The notes beneath the pieces were generated by a model that worked only from the letters and a program-made list of their open reading frames with translations, searched no databases and had not been told where the DNA came from. Position numbers and translations under genes: made by a program. Shown here piece by piece: positions 1,747-63,430 of a stretch of 64,000 bases of DNA (position 1 is its first letter; each line of letters begins with the position of its first letter). Origin of the DNA: Candidatus Latescibacterota bacterium. GTDB lineage: Bacteria > Latescibacterota > UBA2968. The stretch is taken from positions 27,928 through 91,927 of the forward strand of contig JAYODI010000009.1 in the NCBI GenBank assembly GCA_038279365.1. The letters run 5' to 3'.

Positions 1747-3165
1747 ATGAATCGACGCACATTCATCAAACGCGCCACGCAAAGTTCTGCTGGCTTTGCG
1801 CTCGGTGGTTTTTTGACCAGAGCCTATGGCACAGCCAACGCCGTGGGCCCGTTGGCGGCAACCGCAATGAGCCAAACAGATCGTGTCTTGGTGCTCATTC
1901 GCCTTGATGGCGGAAATGATGGATTAAACACCTTGGTCAACTTTGAAGACCGCGCCTATTATCAGGCACGCCCAACCGTCCATGTCACAAAAGAAAATGC
2001 CCTCAAACTTTCAGACACCCAAGGTTTGCACCCTCGCCTCACAGGATTGAAAGAACTTCACGACGAAGGCCGCTTGCTTGCCTTACAAGGTGTGGGATAT
2101 CCCAACCCCAACCGCTCTCACTTTCGGGCAACCGACATTTGGATGACGGCCTCAGACACCGATGAATATCTCACCAACGGTTGGTTGGGGCGTTACCTTG
2201 AAACACAAACACCTGGGTTTCCCGAAACGTTGCCCGAGCATCCGCTTGCCGTTGATATCGGCCCAGTTTTATCTTTATCACTCTTAGGGCAAAATGGAGC
2301 AATGGGCATTGCACTCAACAATCCCAAACAATTTGTCTACCTCGTTGAACAGGGCAATCAAATTATAGACGATGGCAAGATTCCTACCCCTGCAGGTTTT
2401 GAACTCGACTTTATTCGGCGTGTTAATTTTGAATCTTTGCAATATTCACAGCAAGTCAAAGAGGCGGCGGAGGCTGGTGCCAATAAAATCAGTTATCCAG
2501 ACGCCTCACTCAGCGATCAACTGGCACTGGTTGCTCGCCTCATCGCAGGGGGCTTAAAATCCAAAGTCTTTTTGGTCTCACAACGCGGTTATGACACCCA
2601 TGCCAACCAAATCAACCGGCACGATGCCCTCATGGCCGAACTCAATGATGCCGTAACCGCATTTACACAAGACCTCAACCAATTAGGTCTACAAGATCGT
2701 GTAATGGGCATGACCTTGTCAGAGTTTGGCCGCCGGGTCAAAGAAAATGGCAGCACTGGCACCGATCACGGTACAACAGCCCCCATGTTCTTTTTTGGCC
2801 CCCAACTCAACGCAGGCATATACGGAACAGCACCCAACTTTGAAAACCTTGACAGTCGCGGAGACTTCCTTCACGAATTTCATTTTCGCCAAGCCTATGC
2901 CTCTGTGCTTAATCAATGGTTTGGCATATCAGATGAAGCCCTCAAACTTGTCTTTCCCTCCAACCCAAGTACATTACCCCTCATTCGCGCAACACCTTCT
3001 TTAGACAAAGTAGATTTTACAGGCGATGGAAAATTAGACTTTGCAGACTTTATCGAATTTGCACAAGCCTATGGCAGCAACAATTCCAAATTTGACATAG
3101 ATGGGGATGGTACGGTTGGATTTACTGATTTCCTCACTTTTGCCGATGCATTCCGAAACCGATAA
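1747..3165 (+). CDS. DUF1501 domain protein with Tat-like signal and C-terminal double EF-hand/dockerin-like module
   Basis: MNRRTFIK twin-arginine motif; LDGGNDGLNT, PNRSHFRA, GYDTHANQ, SEFGRRVKENGSTGTDHG; C-terminal DFTGDGKLDFADF...FDIDGDGTVGFTDFLTFA. Confidence 0.9.
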   Translation: MNRRTFIKRATQSSAGFALGGFLTRAYGTANAVGPLAATAMSQTDRVLVLIRLDGGNDGLNTLVNFEDRAYYQARPTVHVTKENALKLSDTQGLHPRLTGLKELHDEGRLLALQGVGYPNPNRSHFRATDIWMTASDTDEYLTNGWLGRYLETQTPGFPETLPEHPLAVDIGPVLSLSLLGQNGAMGIALNNPKQFVYLVEQGNQIIDDGKIPTPAGFELDFIRRVNFESLQYSQQVKEAAEAGANKISYPDASLSDQLALVARLIAGGLKSKVFLVSQRGYDTHANQINRHDALMAELNDAVTAFTQDLNQLGLQDRVMGMTLSEFGRRVKENGSTGTDHGTTAPMFFFGPQLNAGIYGTAPNFENLDSRGDFLHEFHFRQAYASVLNQWFGISDEALKLVFPSNPSTLPLIRATPSLDKVDFTGDGKLDFADFIEFAQAYGSNNSKFDIDGDGTVGFTDFLTFADAFRNR

Positions 3166-3190
3166 TCACTTGGCTCAGTCTCACAAACAG

Positions 3191-3220
3191 AAGCCCCGAC
3201 AACAATTTGTCTGGGGTTTT
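3191..3220 (+). terminator. Probable intrinsic terminator
   Basis: Bulged hairpin aagccccgacaa/ttgtctggggtttt just after the DUF1501 stop. Confidence 0.55.
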
Positions 3221-3250
3221 GGGCACCCACCATTTTGAGCCGAGGTTCCT

Positions 3251-5446
3251 ATGAAACTACAAAAACAAGAAGTCGCCTTTTCCAACCGCTATTTGTACTA
3301 TTATGCAAGCCTCATCAAAAAAATATATGGCTTTGTGATACGCCGAGGCGAAGATCAACCCGACGAACGCTATGTAGGGCACATCGGTGAACACCCTCAG
3401 CGCAAAGATTTGCCATCTGAAGTGGTACAAAATCCCCTCAGCCCAGGGCGTGATGGTTTACCAGTGGTTGGAGAAATCATCCTCTTTCGTTTTCGCAAAC
3501 GCCTCCTATTTGGCTATTGCCGAGAATTGCTATCGCGCCAAGTATCCGAAATTTCTGTGCAAACAGAAGATGAACGCCACATCCGTTTTCACAAAACCAA
3601 CCTTATCTATCTCACGGGCATCACCATCAAGAACAGTGGCAAAGAATTGTATCAATATGCCCAAACCATTCGCACACTCAGCCAACAAATAAATCTCAAA
3701 ACCATTTGGGAACTTGCTTCCGAATCGAAAACCCCACTCACATTTGATGACATTTCCGATTTATACTGGACAGATGAAAACAGAGATCCGACGCGTTTTG
3801 TATCTCTGTATTTGCACCTCCACCAAAATTGCCCCTACTTCACACCCAACCAACACACCCATATACCCACGTCACAAGAAGAGACAGATCAACGCATTTT
3901 AGCCCAAAACAATCGCAAGCAACAAGCCGATGAGCGCGAAGAATTTATTCACTACCTTCAAGACGATCACGACACAGACACACAATCCCTTACCAAACGC
4001 CAACAAACCTGGTTTGAGTCCATTCGCCAATATGCTTTGTGGGGGCAAGAAGCCGAACGATCAAATGATGCTCGAAGCATTCTATCGGCAGTCAACCCGC
4101 AAACAAAAAACTACAAACGCTTGGCCTTTGATTGCTTGGTCACCAAAAAAATTTGGCAACCAAATGAAAATCTGGACTTACACCGTTCAGAAATTCCAAC
4201 CACATTTTCAACATCCGAATGTGAAGATGCAAAAGTGCGCTTTTCAAATTACGATCTCAAAGATCGTAAACATTTCCAACGCGGTTTGTTTGTGATCCAA
4301 GACGCAGACCTACCACACATTGCGCTGTCTTATCGCAAACCTCTTTTTACGGGCCCTGAGTTTTGCCTGCATATTCCAGACCTCAGTACCGTCATAACGC
4401 CCCATTCACCTTGTGACATCGCTGCTGCCGAACGTTTACAAACCTTATCATTACCCGATCAAACATTGGCCCTGCTGCCTCAAAGTTTATCCTTTTCAAC
4501 AAACCATGCCATTCCAACCTTAAGCCTCATTTGGCGAATGGATCGCAAAGGGCGTCTCAAATCATTCAAACTCATACCCTCTGCATCAACCGTTCAAGCA
4601 AAACTCACAGCCGATGAAATCACCCGCGCCCATCACAACCCTGCTCACCTCTATCATCGTGCCATCACATTTTTCAACCACCTTGCCCATCGTTTGCAAG
4701 AACGACGCACACCACGCGATGGCGACTTTGATCTGCCCGACCTACGCCTCATTTACAAAAATGACACCCCCACCATTTCGCCCATATCCAACGACTTGGC
4801 CCATCACATACTCAACGAACTTCGCCTCCTTGCTGGTGTTGCAACAGGGCGATGGTGTTTAGAAAACCACCTCCCCGCCATATATGAAATGCGCGACGAA
4901 GTTGAAAACATCGAGGTGCACCAGCAGATAGACCACCCGATTGTTCGCCGACATGAAATACGACGCCTGATGCCCAAAATTAAAAAAACAGAATCTCCAG
5001 CATTTCATCACGGTTTCGGCATTGCTCTATATTGCCCCATAACCGATCCCAACAACCATTACGATCATCTGCTCATGCAACGTCAAATAAACCACCACCT
5101 TCAACATGGCGCTCACCTTTACAACGAAGAGCACCTTAATATTTTGAGGTTTCAAATTCAAGAAATGCATGCCATCAGCGAAGGCATCATTTATCGCAGG
5201 CAACGCGATTTGCTCTTGCAATTTTGGGCAAATCATATCGGAACAAATTTTGAGGCCACCGTCTTGCACATCAAACGGCACGGTGTCTTGGTCGAGTTCA
5301 AAAATGCACCATTCAAAACCATTGTCTACCCCAGTCATCCCGTACAAGTTGGCGATGAAATCACATTGCGTCTTACGGGTATAAACACCGACCAAGCACA
5401 AGCCCACTTCACAGTATTACAGCCCGAAACCTTATCACACCCCTAA
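3251..5446 (+). CDS. RNB (RNase II/R family) domain protein with degenerate active-site motifs
   Basis: Recognisable RNB scaffold (HIPDLS, AAERLQTLSLPDQ, ELRLLAG, HHGFGIALYCPITDP..HYDHL) and an S1-like C-terminus; start codon uncertain. Confidence 0.75.
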   Translation: MKLQKQEVAFSNRYLYYYASLIKKIYGFVIRRGEDQPDERYVGHIGEHPQRKDLPSEVVQNPLSPGRDGLPVVGEIILFRFRKRLLFGYCRELLSRQVSEISVQTEDERHIRFHKTNLIYLTGITIKNSGKELYQYAQTIRTLSQQINLKTIWELASESKTPLTFDDISDLYWTDENRDPTRFVSLYLHLHQNCPYFTPNQHTHIPTSQEETDQRILAQNNRKQQADEREEFIHYLQDDHDTDTQSLTKRQQTWFESIRQYALWGQEAERSNDARSILSAVNPQTKNYKRLAFDCLVTKKIWQPNENLDLHRSEIPTTFSTSECEDAKVRFSNYDLKDRKHFQRGLFVIQDADLPHIALSYRKPLFTGPEFCLHIPDLSTVITPHSPCDIAAAERLQTLSLPDQTLALLPQSLSFSTNHAIPTLSLIWRMDRKGRLKSFKLIPSASTVQAKLTADEITRAHHNPAHLYHRAITFFNHLAHRLQERRTPRDGDFDLPDLRLIYKNDTPTISPISNDLAHHILNELRLLAGVATGRWCLENHLPAIYEMRDEVENIEVHQQIDHPIVRRHEIRRLMPKIKKTESPAFHHGFGIALYCPITDPNNHYDHLLMQRQINHHLQHGAHLYNEEHLNILRFQIQEMHAISEGIIYRRQRDLLLQFWANHIGTNFEATVLHIKRHGVLVEFKNAPFKTIVYPSHPVQVGDEITLRLTGINTDQAQAHFTVLQPETLSHP

Positions 5447-52217: not shown

Positions 52218-53924
52218 TTACATGCGCTCAGGTGCTTTCATACCCAATAAGGTCAACCCCGAAGCCAACACCGTCTTAATGGCATAGACCAAAGCCACAC
52301 GAGACCTTGTAACCGCTTCATCATCCGAAATCACCTGATGGGCATTATAAAAACGATTGGCCACGGTGCACAATTCTATCAAATAGTTGGCAACGGTTGA
52401 GGGTTCGTGTTCATCTGCTGCTTTTTGAATTTGTTTGGGATACCGCTCCAAACACTTAACCACCTCCAAGGTCTCTACCTCGCTCAATTTTTCAAAATCA
52501 ACTTCTTCAGGAGGCAACGCCCCTTCATATTTGCGCAATACGCTACAATAACGCGCATGGGTATATTGCACATACGGTCCCGTTTCACCATTAAAATTGA
52601 GCACCTCATCCCAATCAAATACAATATCACGTGCACGCCGAGAATCCAAATCGGCAAAAATAACGGCACCAATACCCACATCTTGTGCAATTTGTTCGCC
52701 ATCTAATAAGTCTGGGTTTTTCTCGGCAATAATCTCACGAGCCAATTCGATGGCGCGGTTCAACACATCTTCCAAAAACACAACATTGCCTTTGCGTGTA
52801 GAGGCCCCACCACCACCCTTAAAGTTTAAACGCCCAAACACCACATGCGCACACTTTTCAACCCACTTATAATCCATCAACTCCAAAACTTTGAACAATT
52901 GCTTAAAATGGAGAGATTGCGCCACATCTACCACATACAGCAATTTTTCAAATTGATATGTTTCCCAACGATATTCTGCAGCGGCCAAATCACGTGTACC
53001 GTATAATGTTGCATCGTCACTGCGCAGCGCTATCAAAGGTGGCATATCCCATTTTTCCAAATCCACAATGGTTGCCCCTTCGCTCTTCTTCAACAAATTC
53101 TTTTCTCTTAACCGTTCAATCGTAGCCGACATCTTATCTTGATAAAAGCTCTCACCCGCTATTGATTCAAACCCAATGCCCAACATTTGATACACCCGAT
53201 CAAATTCTTTAAAGCTCACATCCACACAAATTTGCCACATCCGCACCGCTTCTTCATCACCGGCTTCCAAACGTCTAAACCATTCTCGTGCCTCTTCTTC
53301 AAGCTGCGGATTGTCTTCGATTTCTTCGTGAATGCGTATATACAGTTCCAACAATTTTTTAATGGTAATATCTGTGGTCAACTCCCCTTCGCCCCAGTAA
53401 TTCCAAGCCAAAATCAACTTGGCAAACTGAGAACCCCAATCACCCAAATGATTCACACCCACCACCTGATAACCCAAGGCACGGTGAATGTTGCGCAGCG
53501 AATTGCCAATAACAGTAGAACGCAAATGATGAATCCCAAATGGTTTGGCAATATTGGGGTGTGAAAAATCAATCACCACCGTTTTGCCCTGGCCAACATT
53601 GCTGTAGCCAAAGGAATCGCCTTCTTGTAAAATTTGGGACAGTGTTTCGCCAACAAAACTGCTCTTGCGCACAAAAAAGTTCAAATATGGTCCGATCGGT
53701 TTTGCCTGAGCAATACGATCTCCTACTTGAATTTTTTCAGCCAACTCTTGGGCAATCACATTAGGTGCTTTGCGAAATGTTTTGGCCAATGTAAAACATG
53801 GAAATGCATAATCGCCCATCTCTGGCTTGGGCGGTGTTTCCATCATTACAACCACATCATCTGCCCCCAAACCCGTTGCTTGTGCAACTTGGTGAGCAAT
53901 TTCATCTACAAAAGGATTCGACAC
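52218..53924 (-). CDS. argS: Arginine--tRNA ligase
   Basis: GDYAFPCF, PNIAKP...HLRST, HLGDWG, GETGPYVQYTHAR, PERM. Confidence 0.96.
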   Translation of the reverse strand: MSNPFVDEIAHQVAQATGLGADDVVVMMETPPKPEMGDYAFPCFTLAKTFRKAPNVIAQELAEKIQVGDRIAQAKPIGPYLNFFVRKSSFVGETLSQILQEGDSFGYSNVGQGKTVVIDFSHPNIAKPFGIHHLRSTVIGNSLRNIHRALGYQVVGVNHLGDWGSQFAKLILAWNYWGEGELTTDITIKKLLELYIRIHEEIEDNPQLEEEAREWFRRLEAGDEEAVRMWQICVDVSFKEFDRVYQMLGIGFESIAGESFYQDKMSATIERLREKNLLKKSEGATIVDLEKWDMPPLIALRSDDATLYGTRDLAAAEYRWETYQFEKLLYVVDVAQSLHFKQLFKVLELMDYKWVEKCAHVVFGRLNFKGGGGASTRKGNVVFLEDVLNRAIELAREIIAEKNPDLLDGEQIAQDVGIGAVIFADLDSRRARDIVFDWDEVLNFNGETGPYVQYTHARYCSVLRKYEGALPPEEVDFEKLSEVETLEVVKCLERYPKQIQKAADEHEPSTVANYLIELCTVANRFYNAHQVISDDEAVTRSRVALVYAIKTVLASGLTLLGMKAPERM

Positions 53925-53945
53925 AATAAAACTCCCTTAAAAACC

Positions 53946-54026
53946 CGTGAGATGACAAATAGGCCCAAGCATAAACCCACGTGATTGGATTGTTTTTTGC
54001 CATCTCACATTTGCCATTTTCTTGCC
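53946..54026. repeat. Short bipartite inverted 7-nt element
   Basis: cgtgaga tgacaaa ... tttgcca tctcaca tttgcca; shares a 16-nt core with the 34282 element in the opposite orientation. Confidence 0.75.
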
Positions 54027-54029
54027 TTA

Positions 54030-54500
54030 TCATTTCAAAATATTCAACTCCAAAATTTCTTGCACATCTGACTTGACCTGCTGAGGAATACGAAAACGAT
54101 GTTTTCGATGTTTTGTGATGAGCACCACATCGCGCTCATCTAACCACTCATATCCCGAAATGTGTTGCCAAGACAAAAAACGCATCCCCATCAACACCCC
54201 GCGCGTACTCAGGGTCACACGGATATTGACATAGGCCAAATAAAAAAACTCTAAAGACAACAAAAAACCAAATATTTGAGGCACCAGGCCCACACCATAA
54301 GAACTTGCGGCACCGCGAAACAAAACCACGCCTCCCATGACAACCAACAATGCATTCCAACGTTTTTGCAAAAAGACAACAATGGGTGCGGGGCTGTCCT
54401 GCACCAACCTTCGAAGTTTCCAATAAGCAACGATGGAGGCCCCCAACATCAACGGAGCCAAAACCAACACGGCTTGCATCATCCACAAAGGCATGGGCAT
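54030..54500 (-). CDS. Hypothetical membrane protein (possibly DUF5673/PH-like)
   Basis: Three hydrophobic segments followed by GV......W..I.GYEW. Confidence 0.7.
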   Translation of the reverse strand: MPMPLWMMQAVLVLAPLMLGASIVAYWKLRRLVQDSPAPIVVFLQKRWNALLVVMGGVVLFRGAASSYGVGLVPQIFGFLLSLEFFYLAYVNIRVTLSTRGVLMGMRFLSWQHISGYEWLDERDVVLITKHRKHRFRIPQQVKSDVQEILELNILK

Positions 54501-54516
54501 CCAATCCGTTTAAAAC

Positions 54517-55239
54517 CTAATGCTTATGTGCAAGATAAATGGTTGCAATCCCAAACGTCAAACGAAATGCCTGAACCTGAGAAAAGCCTGCCTCTTCCAA
54601 ACGCCTACAAAACTCTGGACCTTCCGGAAAACGCATCACCGACTCATACAAATAATGATACGCACTTGCATCACGCGAAATTATTTTCCCAATACGTGGC
54701 AAAACCCACTTAAAATAAAAATTATAAATCCCACGAAAAAGTGGCGCACTGGGGCGTGAAAATTCCAAAATTGCAGCCCGTCCACCGGGTTTAATGACCC
54801 GAAACATTTCTTGTAATGCTGGTTCCAAATTGGCCACATTGCGAATGCCAAAACCAATGGTTAAACCATCAAATAAGGCACTTGGAAAAGGCAAATGCTC
54901 CCCATCGCCGCACAAAAAAGTAAGCGCATCTGATCGAGCAGGGTTTTTGCCCACACCTTTGCGCAACATCGGCACCGACAAATCAACGCCAATCACCTCA
55001 ATGTCTGCACTGCGCTTAGCCGACTCAAAACCCAAATCACCAGTACCAGTTGCCAAATCCAAAATACGCCAATGTGAACCGGGCTGCAGTTTATCAACCG
55101 TTTTTTTACGCCAAACAATATCAATACCCAAACTCAATACATGATTGAGCAAATCATACGTACCCGCAATCCCATCAAACATACGCCGCACAAACACGCG
55201 CTTGGCTTCGGGTTTTATCAACACATCGCGATCAACCAC
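54517..55239 (-). CDS. ubiE: Demethylmenaquinone methyltransferase UbiE/MenG
   Basis: MFDGIAGTYDLLNHVLSLG, LDLATGTGD, FGIRNV, LEFS, YHYLYES. Confidence 0.93.
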   Translation of the reverse strand: MVDRDVLIKPEAKRVFVRRMFDGIAGTYDLLNHVLSLGIDIVWRKKTVDKLQPGSHWRILDLATGTGDLGFESAKRSADIEVIGVDLSVPMLRKGVGKNPARSDALTFLCGDGEHLPFPSALFDGLTIGFGIRNVANLEPALQEMFRVIKPGGRAAILEFSRPSAPLFRGIYNFYFKWVLPRIGKIISRDASAYHYLYESVMRFPEGPEFCRRLEEAGFSQVQAFRLTFGIATIYLAHKH

Positions 55240-55295
55240 AAAAAATCCTTCCCTGACACAAATCGAATCGTTTCGCCCAGTCCACATATTCCGTT

Positions 55296-56162
55296 TTAAG
55301 CTTCAAAGCGCTTAACCACCACTTTTTTCATCACATCCACAGGGGGCATTGTGCCTGTCCATATTTCAAACGAACGTGCACCTTGGTAAACCAACATATC
55401 CAACCCACCAAATGCCGCCGCACCCACAGACTTAAAGGCACGCATCAACGCTGTTTCCAATGGATTAAACACCGTATCATACAAAACCATATCCGGATGC
55501 ACCGCCTTTATGTCAGCCAAGGGAGACGCATCTACGTTGGGGTACATGCCCAAAGACGTTGTGTTGACCACCAAACCCGCATCTGCAAATGTGCGGGTTT
55601 GCGCATCAGCATCCATCCCCCCCACCAAGATTGTCTTTCCCGTGATCTTTTCCATATCCACAGCCAAAGCCTCAGCGCGTTTCGTCGTTCGGTTTAACAA
55701 CGTCACACGCTTCACCTGAGCTTGATTGCCCAAAGCATAGGTCACCGCTCTTGCAGCCCCACCTGCGCCCAGAACCACACAATGTTCAGGAAAAGTTGTC
55801 ACGCCTGCTATTTCATGCAACGCAGTCAGCACACCATACACATCGGTATTATATCCAACCAATTCACCATCTTCATGTGAAATGGTATTTACCGCTCCCA
55901 CAGCCAACGCTTCTTCAGAAATGCGATCCATATGTTCCATCACGGCCAACTTATGGGGAATGGTCACATTCAAACCGCGAATATTTAAACCACGCAAACC
56001 GCGCATCGCATCCCCAACACGATCAGGCAAAACATGAAAGGCTGTATAACAATAATCCAACCCCAAAGCCGAAATGGCAGCATTGTGCATGTCGGGAGAA
56101 AACGAATGCGCCACCGGGTGCCCGATGACGCCTAAAACTTGGCTCGTTGCACGAATGTTCAA
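55296..56162 (-). CDS. aroE: Shikimate dehydrogenase
   Basis: HSFSP.MHN, NVTIPHK, AVNT, NTD, GAGGAARA, MLVYQG; TTG start after AAAGGAG. Confidence 0.95.
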   Translation of the reverse strand: MNIRATSQVLGVIGHPVAHSFSPDMHNAAISALGLDYCYTAFHVLPDRVGDAMRGLRGLNIRGLNVTIPHKLAVMEHMDRISEEALAVGAVNTISHEDGELVGYNTDVYGVLTALHEIAGVTTFPEHCVVLGAGGAARAVTYALGNQAQVKRVTLLNRTTKRAEALAVDMEKITGKTILVGGMDADAQTRTFADAGLVVNTTSLGMYPNVDASPLADIKAVHPDMVLYDTVFNPLETALMRAFKSVGAAAFGGLDMLVYQGARSFEIWTGTMPPVDVMKKVVVKRFEA

Positions 56163-56192
56163 ACGTCGCTCCTTTAATCACTAAAAAACAAA

Positions 56193-56264
56193 CGGCAAAT
56201 GGCAGACGCAACCGTGAAATTTAAAAACATACTTTTGCCATTTCACGGTTGCCGTTTGCCTGCC
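56193..56264. repeat. Bipartite inverted 7-nt element
   Basis: cggcaaa tggcaga ... cgtgaaa / tttgcca tttcacg gttgccg tttgcc; perfect 13-bp stem 56208-56220/56240-56252. Confidence 0.8.
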
Positions 56265-56266
56265 TT

Positions 56267-56407
56267 TTATCCCAACAAATCATTGACAAATTCATCGGCT
56301 ATATCAAAGCTCTCTTTCCAAGAGCAATCATAGGTATACCGAATAAATAACACCCCACCCAAAATCACGACCAATATCCACACGGCCAACTTAAACAATA
56401 CTTTCAT
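56267..56407 (-). CDS. Small single-TM protein (46 aa)
   Basis: MKVLFKLAVWILVVILGGVLFIRYTY...; AGAGGTG RBS overlapping the aroA-like stop. Confidence 0.7.
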   Translation of the reverse strand: MKVLFKLAVWILVVILGGVLFIRYTYDCSWKESFDIADEFVNDLLG

Positions 56408-56411
56408 AGTG

Positions 56412-57710
56412 TCACCTCTTTGCGTTAACAACGGTTTCCAAACACGAAAACAGCTCCGCAAAATCTTCTGTCATGGATCCCACATTGGCAATTTGCGTTT
56501 CACCCTCAGCCACCAAACCTGCCAAAGCCAAAGCCATTCCCACTCGCGTATCCCCGCCCGCATCCAATTCAGCCCCCTGCAATGAAACAGGCCCTTGCAC
56601 GACCAAACCATCTGGCATTTCGCCCACTTTGGCACCCAACCGACGCAAATTATCAGCCATAAGTGCCAAACTATCGGTAGAACCTTCGCGCAATTTTTGC
56701 GCATCGCGAATAACCGTTTCACCAGCAGCTTGCGAACCCAGCACAGCTAAAAAAGGAACTTCATTCAAAAACAACGCGGTTTGCTCACCTCCAATACGCG
56801 TTCTGCGCAACTCAGAGGGTTTGGCAGTAACGGTGCGTATCGCAAATTTTGATTCGGAGCGTGCCACCTGAATATCGAGCTGGGCATTAAAACGCCGCAA
56901 CAATTCCAATGCCCGACGCGTTTTCCAATCGTGCCCCACATAATGCAACACCAATTCAGAACGTGGTAACATCGCAGCAACACCCAACAAATAAAGTGCC
57001 GCATCTGGGTCACCTGGCAAATCGTGCAACACACCTTGTGGTGCACGATCACCCGTCATGACCAAATGATAGCCTTCTTTGCCCACTTCTTTTTCTTTTT
57101 CAAAACCAATACCCGCAGTTTTCAACAGCACTTCAAAATCATCATCACCAGCAGCATTTTGTGCCAAATGCACATCACCCGAAGCATCTAAGCCTGCCAA
57201 AAAAAATGCAGCCTTCACAACAGAATCGGGTTCCTCAATCGCATGCTTTGCACCCATCAAGGGTTTTCCACCTACACCAATAAGACATGCCCCATCCGTA
57301 GATTTTTCAATCTGAGCACCCAATGCTTCAAGTGCGGCAATCACACCCTGAGTCTCAACTTGGCCTTCAAACTTCGTCTGGAAATCGGCACCCGCAGTCA
57401 GGCCTGCCAAACACCCCAACAACCATTCAGACTGGCCTACTTGAACAGATTCATTCAGCGCCTGAAGTGTGTTCCCGCCCACCACCACACCCGCATCACT
57501 TTGTGTAATCGCAACGCCCATTTGTGTCAATGCAGTAATCAAAGGCGTTACTTCTGGGCGTCGCGAACAATGGCGAATCACCGACTCCCCAGCACTTTTG
57601 GCCGCCAATGCCAAAGCCATAAGTGACACATTGGGGTTACCTGGTGTGTCACATTCGCCCACCAACCCTCGTGCTTTATGGCTCACATATCCCATCACAT
57701 CTTGCACCAT
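56412..57710 (-). CDS. EPSP synthase (AroA)-fold protein with degenerate active site
   Basis: Collinear with class II AroA (VKAAFFLAGL, LPGD, GETVIRDA..LR, LRRLGA..EMPDGL, D.R.GMALA); follows tyrA; catalytic motifs replaced. Confidence 0.85.
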   Translation of the reverse strand: MVQDVMGYVSHKARGLVGECDTPGNPNVSLMALALAAKSAGESVIRHCSRRPEVTPLITALTQMGVAITQSDAGVVVGGNTLQALNESVQVGQSEWLLGCLAGLTAGADFQTKFEGQVETQGVIAALEALGAQIEKSTDGACLIGVGGKPLMGAKHAIEEPDSVVKAAFFLAGLDASGDVHLAQNAAGDDDFEVLLKTAGIGFEKEKEVGKEGYHLVMTGDRAPQGVLHDLPGDPDAALYLLGVAAMLPRSELVLHYVGHDWKTRRALELLRRFNAQLDIQVARSESKFAIRTVTAKPSELRRTRIGGEQTALFLNEVPFLAVLGSQAAGETVIRDAQKLREGSTDSLALMADNLRRLGAKVGEMPDGLVVQGPVSLQGAELDAGGDTRVGMALALAGLVAEGETQIANVGSMTEDFAELFSCLETVVNAKR

Positions 57711-57723
57711 ACCCCATCACTCC

Positions 57724-58833
57724 CTATCGCAATCGAACTTGATAACCTGCGGCACTCAAAATAGACACCGCTTGTTCTGCATCTGCCTGTTTGCCAAACC
57801 CCATACGAATGGTACCACCCTCCCCTTCACGCACTTTCAGCACTTCAATATCTTCAATATTAACACCCGCATTGGCCAAGCGAGAAGATGAATCTGCAAT
57901 CACTCCAGGTTTGTCTTCTGCCACCATTAAAACTTCATGGAGTGGGTGCAAAAAACCCTTAGAGTCTTTTGGTATGCCATTTCGAATTTCATTGGCAAAG
58001 GCAAAGTTCTCCGCCAATGCCTCATGATCAACTTTATCGCGAAGAGCGACCAATTCATCAATATAAGCATCCAACATGGTTTGAATTGGCCCTGTATTGG
58101 TCTGGCAAATATCTCGCCACATTGAAAATGGGCTCGATGCAATACGCGTCAAGTCTCTAAACCCCCCCGCCGCCATTTGCAGTGGCAACCCATCTGCCTG
58201 ATTAAGTCGCCCAACCAAATTCACCAATGATGTCGCAATCATTTGTGGCAAATGGCTAACAGCAGCGGCCACACGATCATGCGTTTCAGCATCCATGTGC
58301 ATGGGGCGCGCGCCCAAACAACGTATCAATTTTACCATCGCATCAACCGAAGCATCGGGCACATCTTTGGCCGGTGTTAAAACATACAAAGCATTCTCAA
58401 ACAAAAAAGGATCTGCGGCACCCACACCACTTTTTTCAGACCCAGCCATCGGGTGCCCACCCACAAAATAAACATCTTTGCGTTTACAAGCTTCGGCTTT
58501 TTGCACCAACGCACGCTTCGTACTGCCCACATCACTCACCACACATCCGACAGGCACGGCATCCATCACTTGGGGCAATTGTTCCAATATACGAGAGATA
58601 GGCGCACACAAAAAAACCAAATCGGCGTCTTTTACCCCATCACCAAGCGCGTCATAATCAAATCCTGTATCAATCACACCCAACGCTTGTGCTTCTTTTA
58701 AGGTTTCAGCTCGGCTGACTCCTATAATTTTTCGCCCAATGCCCAAACGCTTAAGCGCCAACCCAAGCGACCCACCGATAAGGCCAATACCAATGAGCAC
58801 AATGGTCGCATTTTTAAATGGAGGATCTGTCAT
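57724..58833 (-). CDS. tyrA: Prephenate dehydrogenase with C-terminal ACT domain
   Basis: GIGLIGGS, DVGSTK, GGHPMAGSE, HD...A.VSHLP, GGFRDLTRIASS; EDKPGVI ACT motif. Confidence 0.93.
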   Translation of the reverse strand: MTDPPFKNATIVLIGIGLIGGSLGLALKRLGIGRKIIGVSRAETLKEAQALGVIDTGFDYDALGDGVKDADLVFLCAPISRILEQLPQVMDAVPVGCVVSDVGSTKRALVQKAEACKRKDVYFVGGHPMAGSEKSGVGAADPFLFENALYVLTPAKDVPDASVDAMVKLIRCLGARPMHMDAETHDRVAAAVSHLPQMIATSLVNLVGRLNQADGLPLQMAAGGFRDLTRIASSPFSMWRDICQTNTGPIQTMLDAYIDELVALRDKVDHEALAENFAFANEIRNGIPKDSKGFLHPLHEVLMVAEDKPGVIADSSSRLANAGVNIEDIEVLKVREGEGGTIRMGFGKQADAEQAVSILSAAGYQVRLR

Positions 58834-62452: not shown

Positions 62453-63430
62453 TTAAATATCGCCCACAATTTTATCATAAAAGGAAACATACTTATCTTT
62501 ATCTGGCCCATCAATCAACGCCATCGCATCACGTGGGTGTTGGTTGTGCTGACCCGTAATGTTATAAGGCACCAAAGGACCCCAATCTAATTTTTCACGC
62601 AATGGCACAATATAATCTTGCAAAAATTCATAAACGGGGCGAATCTTAAATTTGGGATTGCGCAAAAAACCAAGCAACAATTCCATTGGACAATTTCCAG
62701 CACCACGCCCCAAGCCCGCCATGGTGGCATCAATGCGATTGGCACCTAAAATAATCGCCTCAATCGTATTGGCAAATGCCAACTGTTGATTGTTGTGCGC
62801 ATGAATACCCACTTCTTTGCCTTTACCCTCAACGGCTTCCAAATAATTGCGCACCAAGATATCTACCTGCTCCCGATAAAGCGCACCAAAACTATCCACC
62901 ACACAAATCGTACCCACAGGCGTGGTGGCAAGCACTTCTAATGCTTGGGCAATCTCTGCATCTTGAACAGTTGAAATGGCCATAATGTTGCAGCTTGTTT
63001 CATATCCCTTTTCATGGGCATCATGTACCATTTCGACAGCTTCGGGAATTTGATCTACATAACAGGCCACACGAACCATGTCCACCACACTCTCACTGCT
63101 GGGCAAAATGTCTTTGGCCCAATTGCTCTTGCCCGCATCGGCCATAATGGCAATTTTTAAACCCGTTGCTTCTGCATCATGATCGCCCGTAATCTTGCGA
63201 ATATCTTCTTCATCGCTATGGCGAAAGGCACCAAAATCTTTTTTGGGAAACATATCTTTGGAATTGCGATAACCAATTTCCATATAATCAATGCCAGCTT
63301 CAATACATGTATCATAAACGGCTTTGACAAAATCTGTTTTAAAATGATGGTCATTCATCAAACCACCATCACGAACCGTACAATCCAAAACCTTCAATTC
63401 TGGGCGATATGTAATCCAAGGTGCCTTCAT
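62453..63430 (-). CDS. DRE-TIM (HMGL-like) aldolase, 4-hydroxy-2-oxovalerate aldolase-like
   Basis: LDCTVRDGG, VDSFG, GIHAHNN, GLGRGAGN. Confidence 0.85.
   Translation of the reverse strand: MKAPWITYRPELKVLDCTVRDGGLMNDHHFKTDFVKAVYDTCIEAGIDYMEIGYRNSKDMFPKKDFGAFRHSDEEDIRKITGDHDAEATGLKIAIMADAGKSNWAKDILPSSESVVDMVRVACYVDQIPEAVEMVHDAHEKGYETSCNIMAISTVQDAEIAQALEVLATTPVGTICVVDSFGALYREQVDILVRNYLEAVEGKGKEVGIHAHNNQQLAFANTIEAIILGANRIDATMAGLGRGAGNCPMELLLGFLRNPKFKIRPVYEFLQDYIVPLREKLDWGPLVPYNITGQHNQHPRDAMALIDGPDKDKYVSFYDKIVGDI

Follow-up and report, generated by a model that had tools for sequence, protein, structure and literature searches.

An AroA-like gene between tyrA and aroE

We analysed 64,000 nucleotides (nt) of the genome of a Candidatus Latescibacterota bacterium (assembly GCA_038279365.1, contig JAYODI010000009.1, positions 27,928 to 91,927 of the forward strand; hereafter the window, numbered from its first letter), which carry a shikimate operon containing an AroA-like gene that we interpret as a pseudoenzyme derived from the operon's own 5-enolpyruvylshikimate-3-phosphate (EPSP) synthase. 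The gene, an open reading frame (ORF) encoding 432 amino acids (aa), occupies positions 56412–57710 on the minus strand, starts with ATG and has no internal stop, bearing out a first-pass annotation that had reported it intact, without its strand. Upstream lies tyrA (57724–58833, minus), encoding a prephenate dehydrogenase with a C-terminal ACT domain (Pfam PDH_N, PDH_C and ACT, together with synteny), whose stop codon is separated from the AroA-like start by a 13-nt spacer (57711–57723, minus) that reads GGAG in part. The next enzyme gene downstream is the shikimate dehydrogenase gene aroE (55296–56162, minus), identified from TIGR00507 (266 bits against a cut-off of 200) and synteny.

Family-level scoring places the protein inside the EPSP synthase superfamily and outside EPSP synthase itself. 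A Pfam scan matches PF00275 over residues 16–420 at 158.9 bits, while the AroA equivalog model TIGR01356 scores 153.5 bits, below its cut-off of 287.25; the homologues from the same order score between 84 and 177 bits, all below this cut-off. Alignment to these two models, proposed in the first-pass annotation, therefore recovers the fold family and fails at the equivalog, and none of the other NCBIfam models claims the ORF. We also rejected an identity as MurA (TIGR01072, 69.1 bits against a cut-off of 392.7). In homology searches the protein belongs to a distinct family whose members span 38–99% identity (E <= 1e-81); after a gap, ordinary AroA proteins begin at about 32% identity (E of about 1e-50).

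Loss of the EPSP synthase active site

We compared the motifs of the AroA-like protein with those of working enzymes by means of a residue-by-residue alignment to the Coxiella EPSP synthase (EPSPS) structure 3tr1 and a motif table. The first-pass annotation had described near-complete replacement of the functional motifs, and every swap it listed is seen in both: PGDKSISHR has become PGNPNVSLM, GNSGT has become GQSEW, SAQVKS has become DSVVKA, RDHTE has become DDDFE, NPTR has become DWKT, IDE has become LNE, VKE.DR has become EGSTDS and DHR has become DTR, and the RPM loop is deleted. To put these replacements on a quantitative footing we defined 19 universal positions, at which E. coli K-12 AroA, 70 class II enzymes and the true AroA of the same genome (see below) all agree. 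The AroA-like protein keeps three of them (D242, D384 and R386, in E. coli numbering) and has changed the other 16, the equivalents of K22, S23, R27, D49, N94, G96, T97, R100, R124, S169, Q171, D313, K340, E341, R344 and H385; the seven positions singled out by the first-pass annotation (K22, R27, Q171, D313, E341, R344 and H385) are all among those changed. We take K22, S23, R27, N94, G96, R100, R124, S169, Q171, D313, K340, E341, R344, H385 and R386 of the E. coli enzyme to bind shikimate 3-phosphate (S3P) or phosphoenolpyruvate (PEP) or to take part in catalysis.

A broader measure gives the same picture. Across 33 columns that are polar or charged and at least 95% conserved in the 70 class II enzymes, the AroA-like protein keeps 8, whereas the intact operon copies found in other classes of the phylum keep all 33. 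Judged from these alignments, the residue losses are far beyond what chance drift in a working enzyme would produce. Domain 2, the lobe responsible for most of the S3P binding of a real enzyme, has a median net charge of -11 in the AroA-like clade where class II enzymes have +3, a basic-to-acidic shift that fits the loss of an anion-binding site.

The fold, by prediction, has survived. An AlphaFold2 model built with 35 relatives has a mean predicted local distance difference test score (pLDDT) of 93 and a predicted template modelling score (pTM) of 0.91, and its best Foldseek matches are class II EPSP synthases (template modelling score (TM) of about 0.8, E of about 1e-37, 26–28% identity). 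The selective loss of the active site without a frameshift and with the fold retained, as first proposed from the letters alone, is thus upheld by the conservation counts, the intact ORF and the confident model of the protein on its own. By these measures the ORF has the two-lobe fold and the PF00275 match of an EPSP synthase and lacks both the equivalog score and the residues of one.

A canonical aroA elsewhere in the genome

Four genes in the genome carry PF00275: a canonical aroA on contig C141, two murA genes and the AroA-like ORF. The C141 gene scores 429 bits with TIGR01356, against the cut-off of 287.25, and the genome also encodes chorismate synthase (aroC) and a type II dehydroquinase (aroQ); a search of the genome for a type I dehydroquinase found none. 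EPSP synthesis is therefore covered by the canonical aroA together with aroC and aroQ, and the deduction of the first-pass annotation that it must be encoded elsewhere, for which it had named a second intact aroA and aroC/aroQ as the genes to look for, proved correct. The arrangement is general in the order, as a TIGR01356-positive gene lies at a separate locus in 40 of 41 genomes, the exception being a draft that is 95% complete. Although the assembly carries a contamination rating of 7.4%, the second aroA is not a contaminant, because single-contig relative genomes hold both genes on one chromosome; the genome's own true AroA is also 84–85% identical to those of two genomes of the same genus.

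The C141 aroA (locus L001) adjoins no aromatic-pathway gene, being flanked by a response-regulator gene (453–1154) and a hybrid histidine kinase/response-regulator gene (2820–3962). The two murA genes, on contigs C129 and C193 (L002 and L003), are full length and both exceed the TIGR01072 cut-off. In one relative (G080), the matches to the AroA-like gene (C1:506272-507567) and to the true aroA (C1:3547452-3548744) each contain one in-frame TGA.

The type of working aroA varies within the class. Apart from a few weaker or partial matches, aroA of the C141 type occurs in genus g25 and a few other genera at 53–57% identity to that of the window genome, and it has no match in families f5, f6, f7, f9, f11 and f12, the families of those genomes in which the operon copy is intact. 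Among genomes of a further family of the class, f4, that lack the C141 type, another TIGR01356-positive aroA was present in all five tested; these genes (L058–L060, L062 and L063, in genera g17, g20, g21, g23 and g24) are more distant and score 343–362 bits. Because the working type differs between lineages of the class, the replacement gene may have been exchanged more than once.

Selection on the AroA-like gene and its two lobes

We estimated the ratio of nonsynonymous to synonymous divergence (dN/dS) by the Nei-Gojobori method from pairs within genera. The AroA-like gene gives values of 0.11–0.33 over 25 pairs, for which tyrA gives 0.08–0.21 and aroE 0.05–0.23, and the corresponding gene of family f4 gives 0.18–0.32 over six pairs. 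These ratios are not near 1 and synteny is conserved across the order and the class, which speaks against simple decay, the outcome that the first-pass annotation had named as fatal to its proposal.

The constraint is unevenly distributed between the lobes. Domain 2 comprises codons 25–233 approximately (57012–57638, minus), and domain 1 comprises codons 234–432 (56415–57011, minus) together with an N-terminal strand of codons 1–24 (57639–57710). In the window's genus (g1) dN/dS is 0.18–0.25 for domain 2 and 0.053–0.062 for domain 1, which is as low as aroE, these ratios being rough because dS, the synonymous divergence, is about 1 or above. In genus g7 the corresponding values are 0.26–0.48 and 0.16–0.25, and a single pair from genus g2 has equal values in both lobes. 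Domain 1 also contains a set of invariant residues specific to the clade (W262, T264, R265, R266, R273, S287, R292, G343, Q378, N409 and G411).

Several relatives have dispensed with domain 2 altogether. In genus g5 all 21 genomes carry a one-lobe gene of about 216–222 aa, and gene callers list such one-lobe proteins (214–224 aa) on megabase-size contigs. Reading the DNA, the g5 gene starts 10–16 nt past the tyrA stop, behind GGAG or AGGA, and its N-terminal strand runs straight into the P-G-D motif at the beginning of domain 1, from which it follows that an in-frame excision between two crossover points removed domain 2. The window gene is full length, and its sequences at these two points share an 11-nt microhomology with one mismatch. 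The short g5 protein is predicted to fold as a single EPSPS lobe (pLDDT 91.5, pTM 0.89; TM of about 0.8 to half of EPSPS). The short forms keep W262, T264, R265, R266, R272, R273, R284, S287, R292 and R302, and one-lobe genes remain under purifying selection (dN/dS 0.12–0.29, six pairs). A search of the ESM Atlas with residues 228–432 returned clusters of EPSPS fragments only.

Two genomes of family f3 (G077 and G078) have a one-lobe form with a different junction, and one further genome (G026) has a 160-aa fragment where its congener has a full-length gene. From the g5, f3 and G026 forms we count at least three losses of domain 2, and the whole gene has been lost once, in G028, a 95%-complete genome in which 385 nt remain between tyrA and aroE and all else is kept. 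Taken together, the rates and the short forms indicate that selection acts mainly on domain 1 and that domain 2 is tolerated rather than needed. With homology to an enzyme whose catalytic residues are lost, purifying selection and long retention, the gene product is, as far as sequence can tell, a pseudoenzyme.

Origin and distribution

The gene order tyrA–X–aroE–...–argS–aroK–aroB, where X is the position of the AroA-like gene, is conserved across the order and beyond. At the loci where the flank is present, tyrA lies directly upstream of X in 12 of 12 cases in the order and in 17 of 20 further cases in the phylum, and the spacer measures 10–18 nt and contains a Shine-Dalgarno-like motif across the loci examined. 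With a profile of the family we detected the AroA-like gene in 52 of the 53 genomes of the order (30 of 30 in family f1 plus the window genome, and 21 of 22 in family f2). Elsewhere in the phylum, in classes other than that of the window genome, an intact class II aroA fills position X, found with tyrA at L035, L036 and L053 and with aroE at L054, and a further intact class II copy (L052) has no recognised neighbours. Two deep lineages of the window's class, the window's order (f1/f2) and family f4, have a degenerate gene at X. The f1/f2 proteins have motifs that include D-W-K-T-R-R and L-R-E-G; the f4 residues differ, sharing the G at the K340 position.

We built a quick maximum-likelihood tree from 46 chosen rows (10 copies from the order, 9 from f4, 4 intact operon copies, 12 class II references, 8 true AroA proteins and 3 MurA as outgroup). 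The two dead groups fall together (SH-aLRT 94, not starred), beside class II (95, starred) and apart from the true AroA proteins (98, starred). The dead clade is not nested within the intact operon copies of the phylum, which we attribute to the long stem branches. We conclude, with orthology judged mainly from synteny, that the AroA-like gene is a vertical descendant of the operon's own class II aroA.

Other features of the operon

The genes form a co-directional row of HIT, HMGL-like aldolase, trpB, trpA, chorismate mutase, DAHP synthase, tyrA, the AroA-like gene, aroE, ubiE, DUF5673, argS, aroK and aroB. In family-level scoring aroB, aroE, DAHP synthase, trpA and trpB exceed NCBIfam equivalog cut-offs, and aroK and tyrA pass Pfam cut-offs only. 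The argS, ubiE (menaquinone/ubiquinone methyltransferase) and DUF5673 genes lie between aroE and aroK-aroB (52218–55287, minus), in an order that is conserved across the order and, without ubiE, across the class. Directly upstream of trpB is the HMGL-like aldolase gene (62453–63430, minus), which is unusual for a trp/aro operon; its best NCBIfam match, 4-hydroxy-2-oxovalerate aldolase, falls under the cut-off, and it is found in the same position at 80–83% identity in the loci of five relatives (L021 and L023–L026).

A small ORF of 46 aa (56267–56407, minus), whose start lies 4 nt past the stop of the AroA-like gene, combines a hydrophobic helix at the N-terminus with an acidic tail that is strongly conserved (C-S-W-K-E-S-F..I-A-D..F-V..D-L-L-G), and a Pfam scan gave no significant family for it. 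By tblastn it is conserved at 22 of 22 loci of the order and 21 of 23 further loci of the phylum, being present also beside intact aroA and in the one species that has lost the AroA-like gene. On this distribution it belongs to the operon independently of the state of AroA, and may be a small membrane protein built into the shikimate operon. Between this ORF and the aroE ribosome-binding site lies a strong hairpin (about 56181–56264, minus; -34 kcal/mol over 71 nt by RNAfold) with a U-rich tract behind it, resembling a terminator or attenuator within what appears to be a single operon.

Scans of the whole window for other signals returned little: no Rfam family reached its gathering score, a consensus promoter scan found 23 sites where shuffled sequences gave 22.0 +/- 4.9, and a terminator scan found 24 against 16.1 +/- 4.4, neither count being informative. 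Matches to 56353–56975 at an identity of at least 99% come from metatranscriptome contigs of two studies, one with DNase treatment, most of the stretch being uncovered; this is weak evidence of expression, because such libraries can carry DNA. Seven DNA runs contain at least half of the sampled words of the stretch, all labelled as estuary or marine metagenomes, and one of them may be the source sample.

Proposed role of the AroA-like protein

The lost active site, the second aroA and the purifying selection together support the proposal of the first-pass annotation that a protein with a retained fold has been repurposed. Our overall reading, to which we give a probability of about 0.6, is of a pseudoenzyme that has no catalytic activity and works by way of its domain 1, which probably serves for binding or regulation tied to TyrA. 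Its broader part, that the protein is dead as an EPSP synthase and yet functional, is very probable on the conservation and rate data, and we regard the gene as encoding a real, conserved and misnamed pseudoenzyme descended, by all sequence indications, from the operon's own EPSP synthase. The naming of TyrA as the specific partner is a tentative suggestion.

The history we envisage would begin with an ancestor of the class that gained a second aroA of unrelated lineage, the gene that would now make EPSP, after which the operon copy would have lost its S3P/PEP site and nevertheless been retained. The former cleft face of domain 1 may then have been rebuilt as a binding face around the invariant D-W-K-T-R-R, L-R-E-G, G-D-x-R and N-x-G. 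Roughly half of domain 1's invariant residues fall in segments of this face, at helix N-termini (approximately 232–238, 260–266, 313–319, 338–347, 385–391 and 409–416) located from the secondary structure of the model. In the synthesis of aromatic amino acids, domain 1 would play the part of a regulatory or adaptor subunit, with TyrA, which is co-transcribed and probably translationally coupled, as its likeliest partner. What makes TyrA the first candidate is the position after tyrA, the short spacer with its ribosome-binding motif and the existence of natural TyrA-EPSPS fusions (NCBIfam model NF011381). Another option raised by the first-pass annotation, a partnership with the second AroA, found no support, domain 1 and TyrA being better indicated by the evidence. 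Carried further, a free-standing domain 1, as an allosteric or adaptor subunit like HisZ, could bind TyrA or another enzyme of the operon through the former cleft face and tune flux at the prephenate/tyrosine branch, having arisen repeatedly wherever a tyrA-linked aroA turned redundant; this extended scheme is less likely than not.

Several observations weigh against our reading. The clean deletion in G028 implies that the role is dispensable there, the ratios of the window's genus are rough at such high dS, and the evolutionary rate of the AroA-like gene in genus g7 is about double that of tyrA and aroE. The dead lineages f1/f2 and f4 are about 30% identical and have few derived residues in common, and with such divergence a single common function is not guaranteed. 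Concerning the partner, a search for fused or longer relatives (757–2160 aa), weak as evidence, found none at E <= 1e-40. A complex prediction of TyrA (18 rows) with the AroA-like protein (35 rows) gave no answer (score 0.00) and tips the balance on binding neither way.

It is worth weighing what else such a gene could be. A functionless relic in slow decay, whose ORF persists through a need for downstream expression (coupling, polarity or an internal signal) or simply through slow loss, would account for the complete loss in G028, the 160-aa fragment in G026, the repeated truncations, the rate above that of the neighbouring genes and the long stem branch that follows the loss of catalysis. 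We nonetheless consider it unlikely, because domain 1 of the window's genus evolves at a dN/dS of 0.05–0.06, equal to aroE, because almost every genome of the order, and also a second deep lineage, has the gene, and because the deletions are in frame, fall at the domain boundary and leave a lobe that can fold; with a mere spacer ORF some 50 invariant residues would not have been conserved. Those same deletions bear on the idea that the full-length protein is a neofunctionalised enzyme whose remodelled inter-domain cleft catalyses another reaction or binds a new substrate. Invariant polar residues specific to the clade do occur in both lobes (K166, which is shared with real enzymes, Q184, D191, K205, H229, D261, W262, R265 and R266), and domain 2, where present, is still under purifying selection (dN/dS 0.10–0.48). 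However, domain 2 forms half of any cleft and has been lost in at least three independent events, with domain 1 still under selection, the f4 residues differ at the same positions, none of the PEP- and S3P-binding positions is left and domain 2 has become strongly acidic, which together make a new catalytic function improbable.

Two further explanations fare worse. The arginines that are invariant in domain 1 (R265, R266, R272, R292, R302, R335, R341 and R356), most of them kept in the short forms, could form a cluster that binds nucleic acid, making the protein an operon regulator in the manner of PyrR, an enzyme fold acting as an RNA binder. This is highly improbable for a protein that is acidic (net charge -17, isoelectric point (pI) 5.0; median net charge of domain 1 in the clade -4), whose short forms range without pattern from pI 4.75 to 9.8, and whose surrounding window yielded no Rfam family at gathering score. 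Finally, the complete fold, the retention of R386, D242 and D384 and the name 3-phosphoshikimate 1-carboxyvinyltransferase that some databases give to the family would fit an EPSP synthase with an unconventional active site. With 16 of the 19 universal positions changed, including the equivalents of K22, R27, R124, Q171, D313, K340, E341, R344 and H385, with a canonical aroA in 40 of 41 relatives, and with one-lobe forms that cannot close a cleft, we find that explanation scarcely credible. The pseudoenzyme acting through domain 1 thus remains our preferred account.

Relation to known systems and significance

We know of no instance in which EPSP synthase acts as an oligomer. Compared with class II EPSP synthases (AroA/AroF, EC 2.5.1.19; structures 3tr1/3slh and, from Bacillus halodurans, 3rmt), the AroA-like protein is alike in its two-lobe fold, its slot after tyrA and its descent; it differs in that its active-site positions are replaced, it fails TIGR01356, it is not the EPSP synthase of its genome and its domain 2 is dispensable. 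MurA, the other branch of PF00275, shares the superfamily fold and is set apart by the TIGR01072 score, and two real murA genes lie elsewhere in the genome. Dead enzyme paralogues with a regulatory role are established in other pathways, HisZ being one. Another is the prozyme of trypanosome AdoMetDC (PMC5201418). Both resemble the AroA-like protein in being a dead enzyme fold kept by selection beside its parent pathway, and they serve as our working model, with the difference that partner and effect are shown for them whereas the partner proposed here is a candidate.

The closest partial precedent in print is a truncated EPSPS domain on the TyrA of Pseudomonas syringae (Song et al. 2005, BMC Biol 3:13; PMC1173090), where a TyrA-fused EPSPS lost about 200 N-terminal residues after a foreign stand-alone aroF had arrived. 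The authors of that paper raise the possibility that what is left of it might take on a regulatory function, and the legend of a figure labels it a pseudogene (PMC1173090). Compared by description, the two cases are alike in that a tyrA-linked EPSPS gave up catalysis beside a stand-alone aroA of foreign lineage, and the deletion of about 200 residues resembles the g5 and f3 one-lobe forms, while the window copy is full length. The P. syringae remnant is fused, recent and confined to one species, whereas the AroA-like gene is a separate ORF, mostly full length, selected class-wide and with invariant residues of its own. Literature searches on EPSP synthase pseudoenzymes or inactive paralogues, on Latescibacteria and shikimate and on TyrA/aroF fusions found nothing on the AroA-like family.

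The family is misnamed in public sources, and pathway reconstructions would read the wrong gene, as would EPSPS-based predictions of glyphosate sensitivity, such as the classification from EPSPS sequences outlined in a preprint (10.1101/2020.05.27.118265). More broadly, a single operon slot holds a natural series of what follows displacement by a foreign copy, from the intact enzyme through a full-length dead form, a one-lobe form and a fragment to complete loss, with selection measurable at each stage. A stable, isolated EPSPS lobe under selection is a small and tractable object for asking why the domain of a dead enzyme is retained, and it makes approachable the question of whether EPSPS linked to TyrA plays a second part, one shared by the many natural TyrA-EPSPS fusions. 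If the proposed role is true, the retained lobe would be a repeated solution for a tyrA-linked aroA that has become redundant, reached both in the Latescibacterota and in the TyrA-fused remnant of P. syringae.

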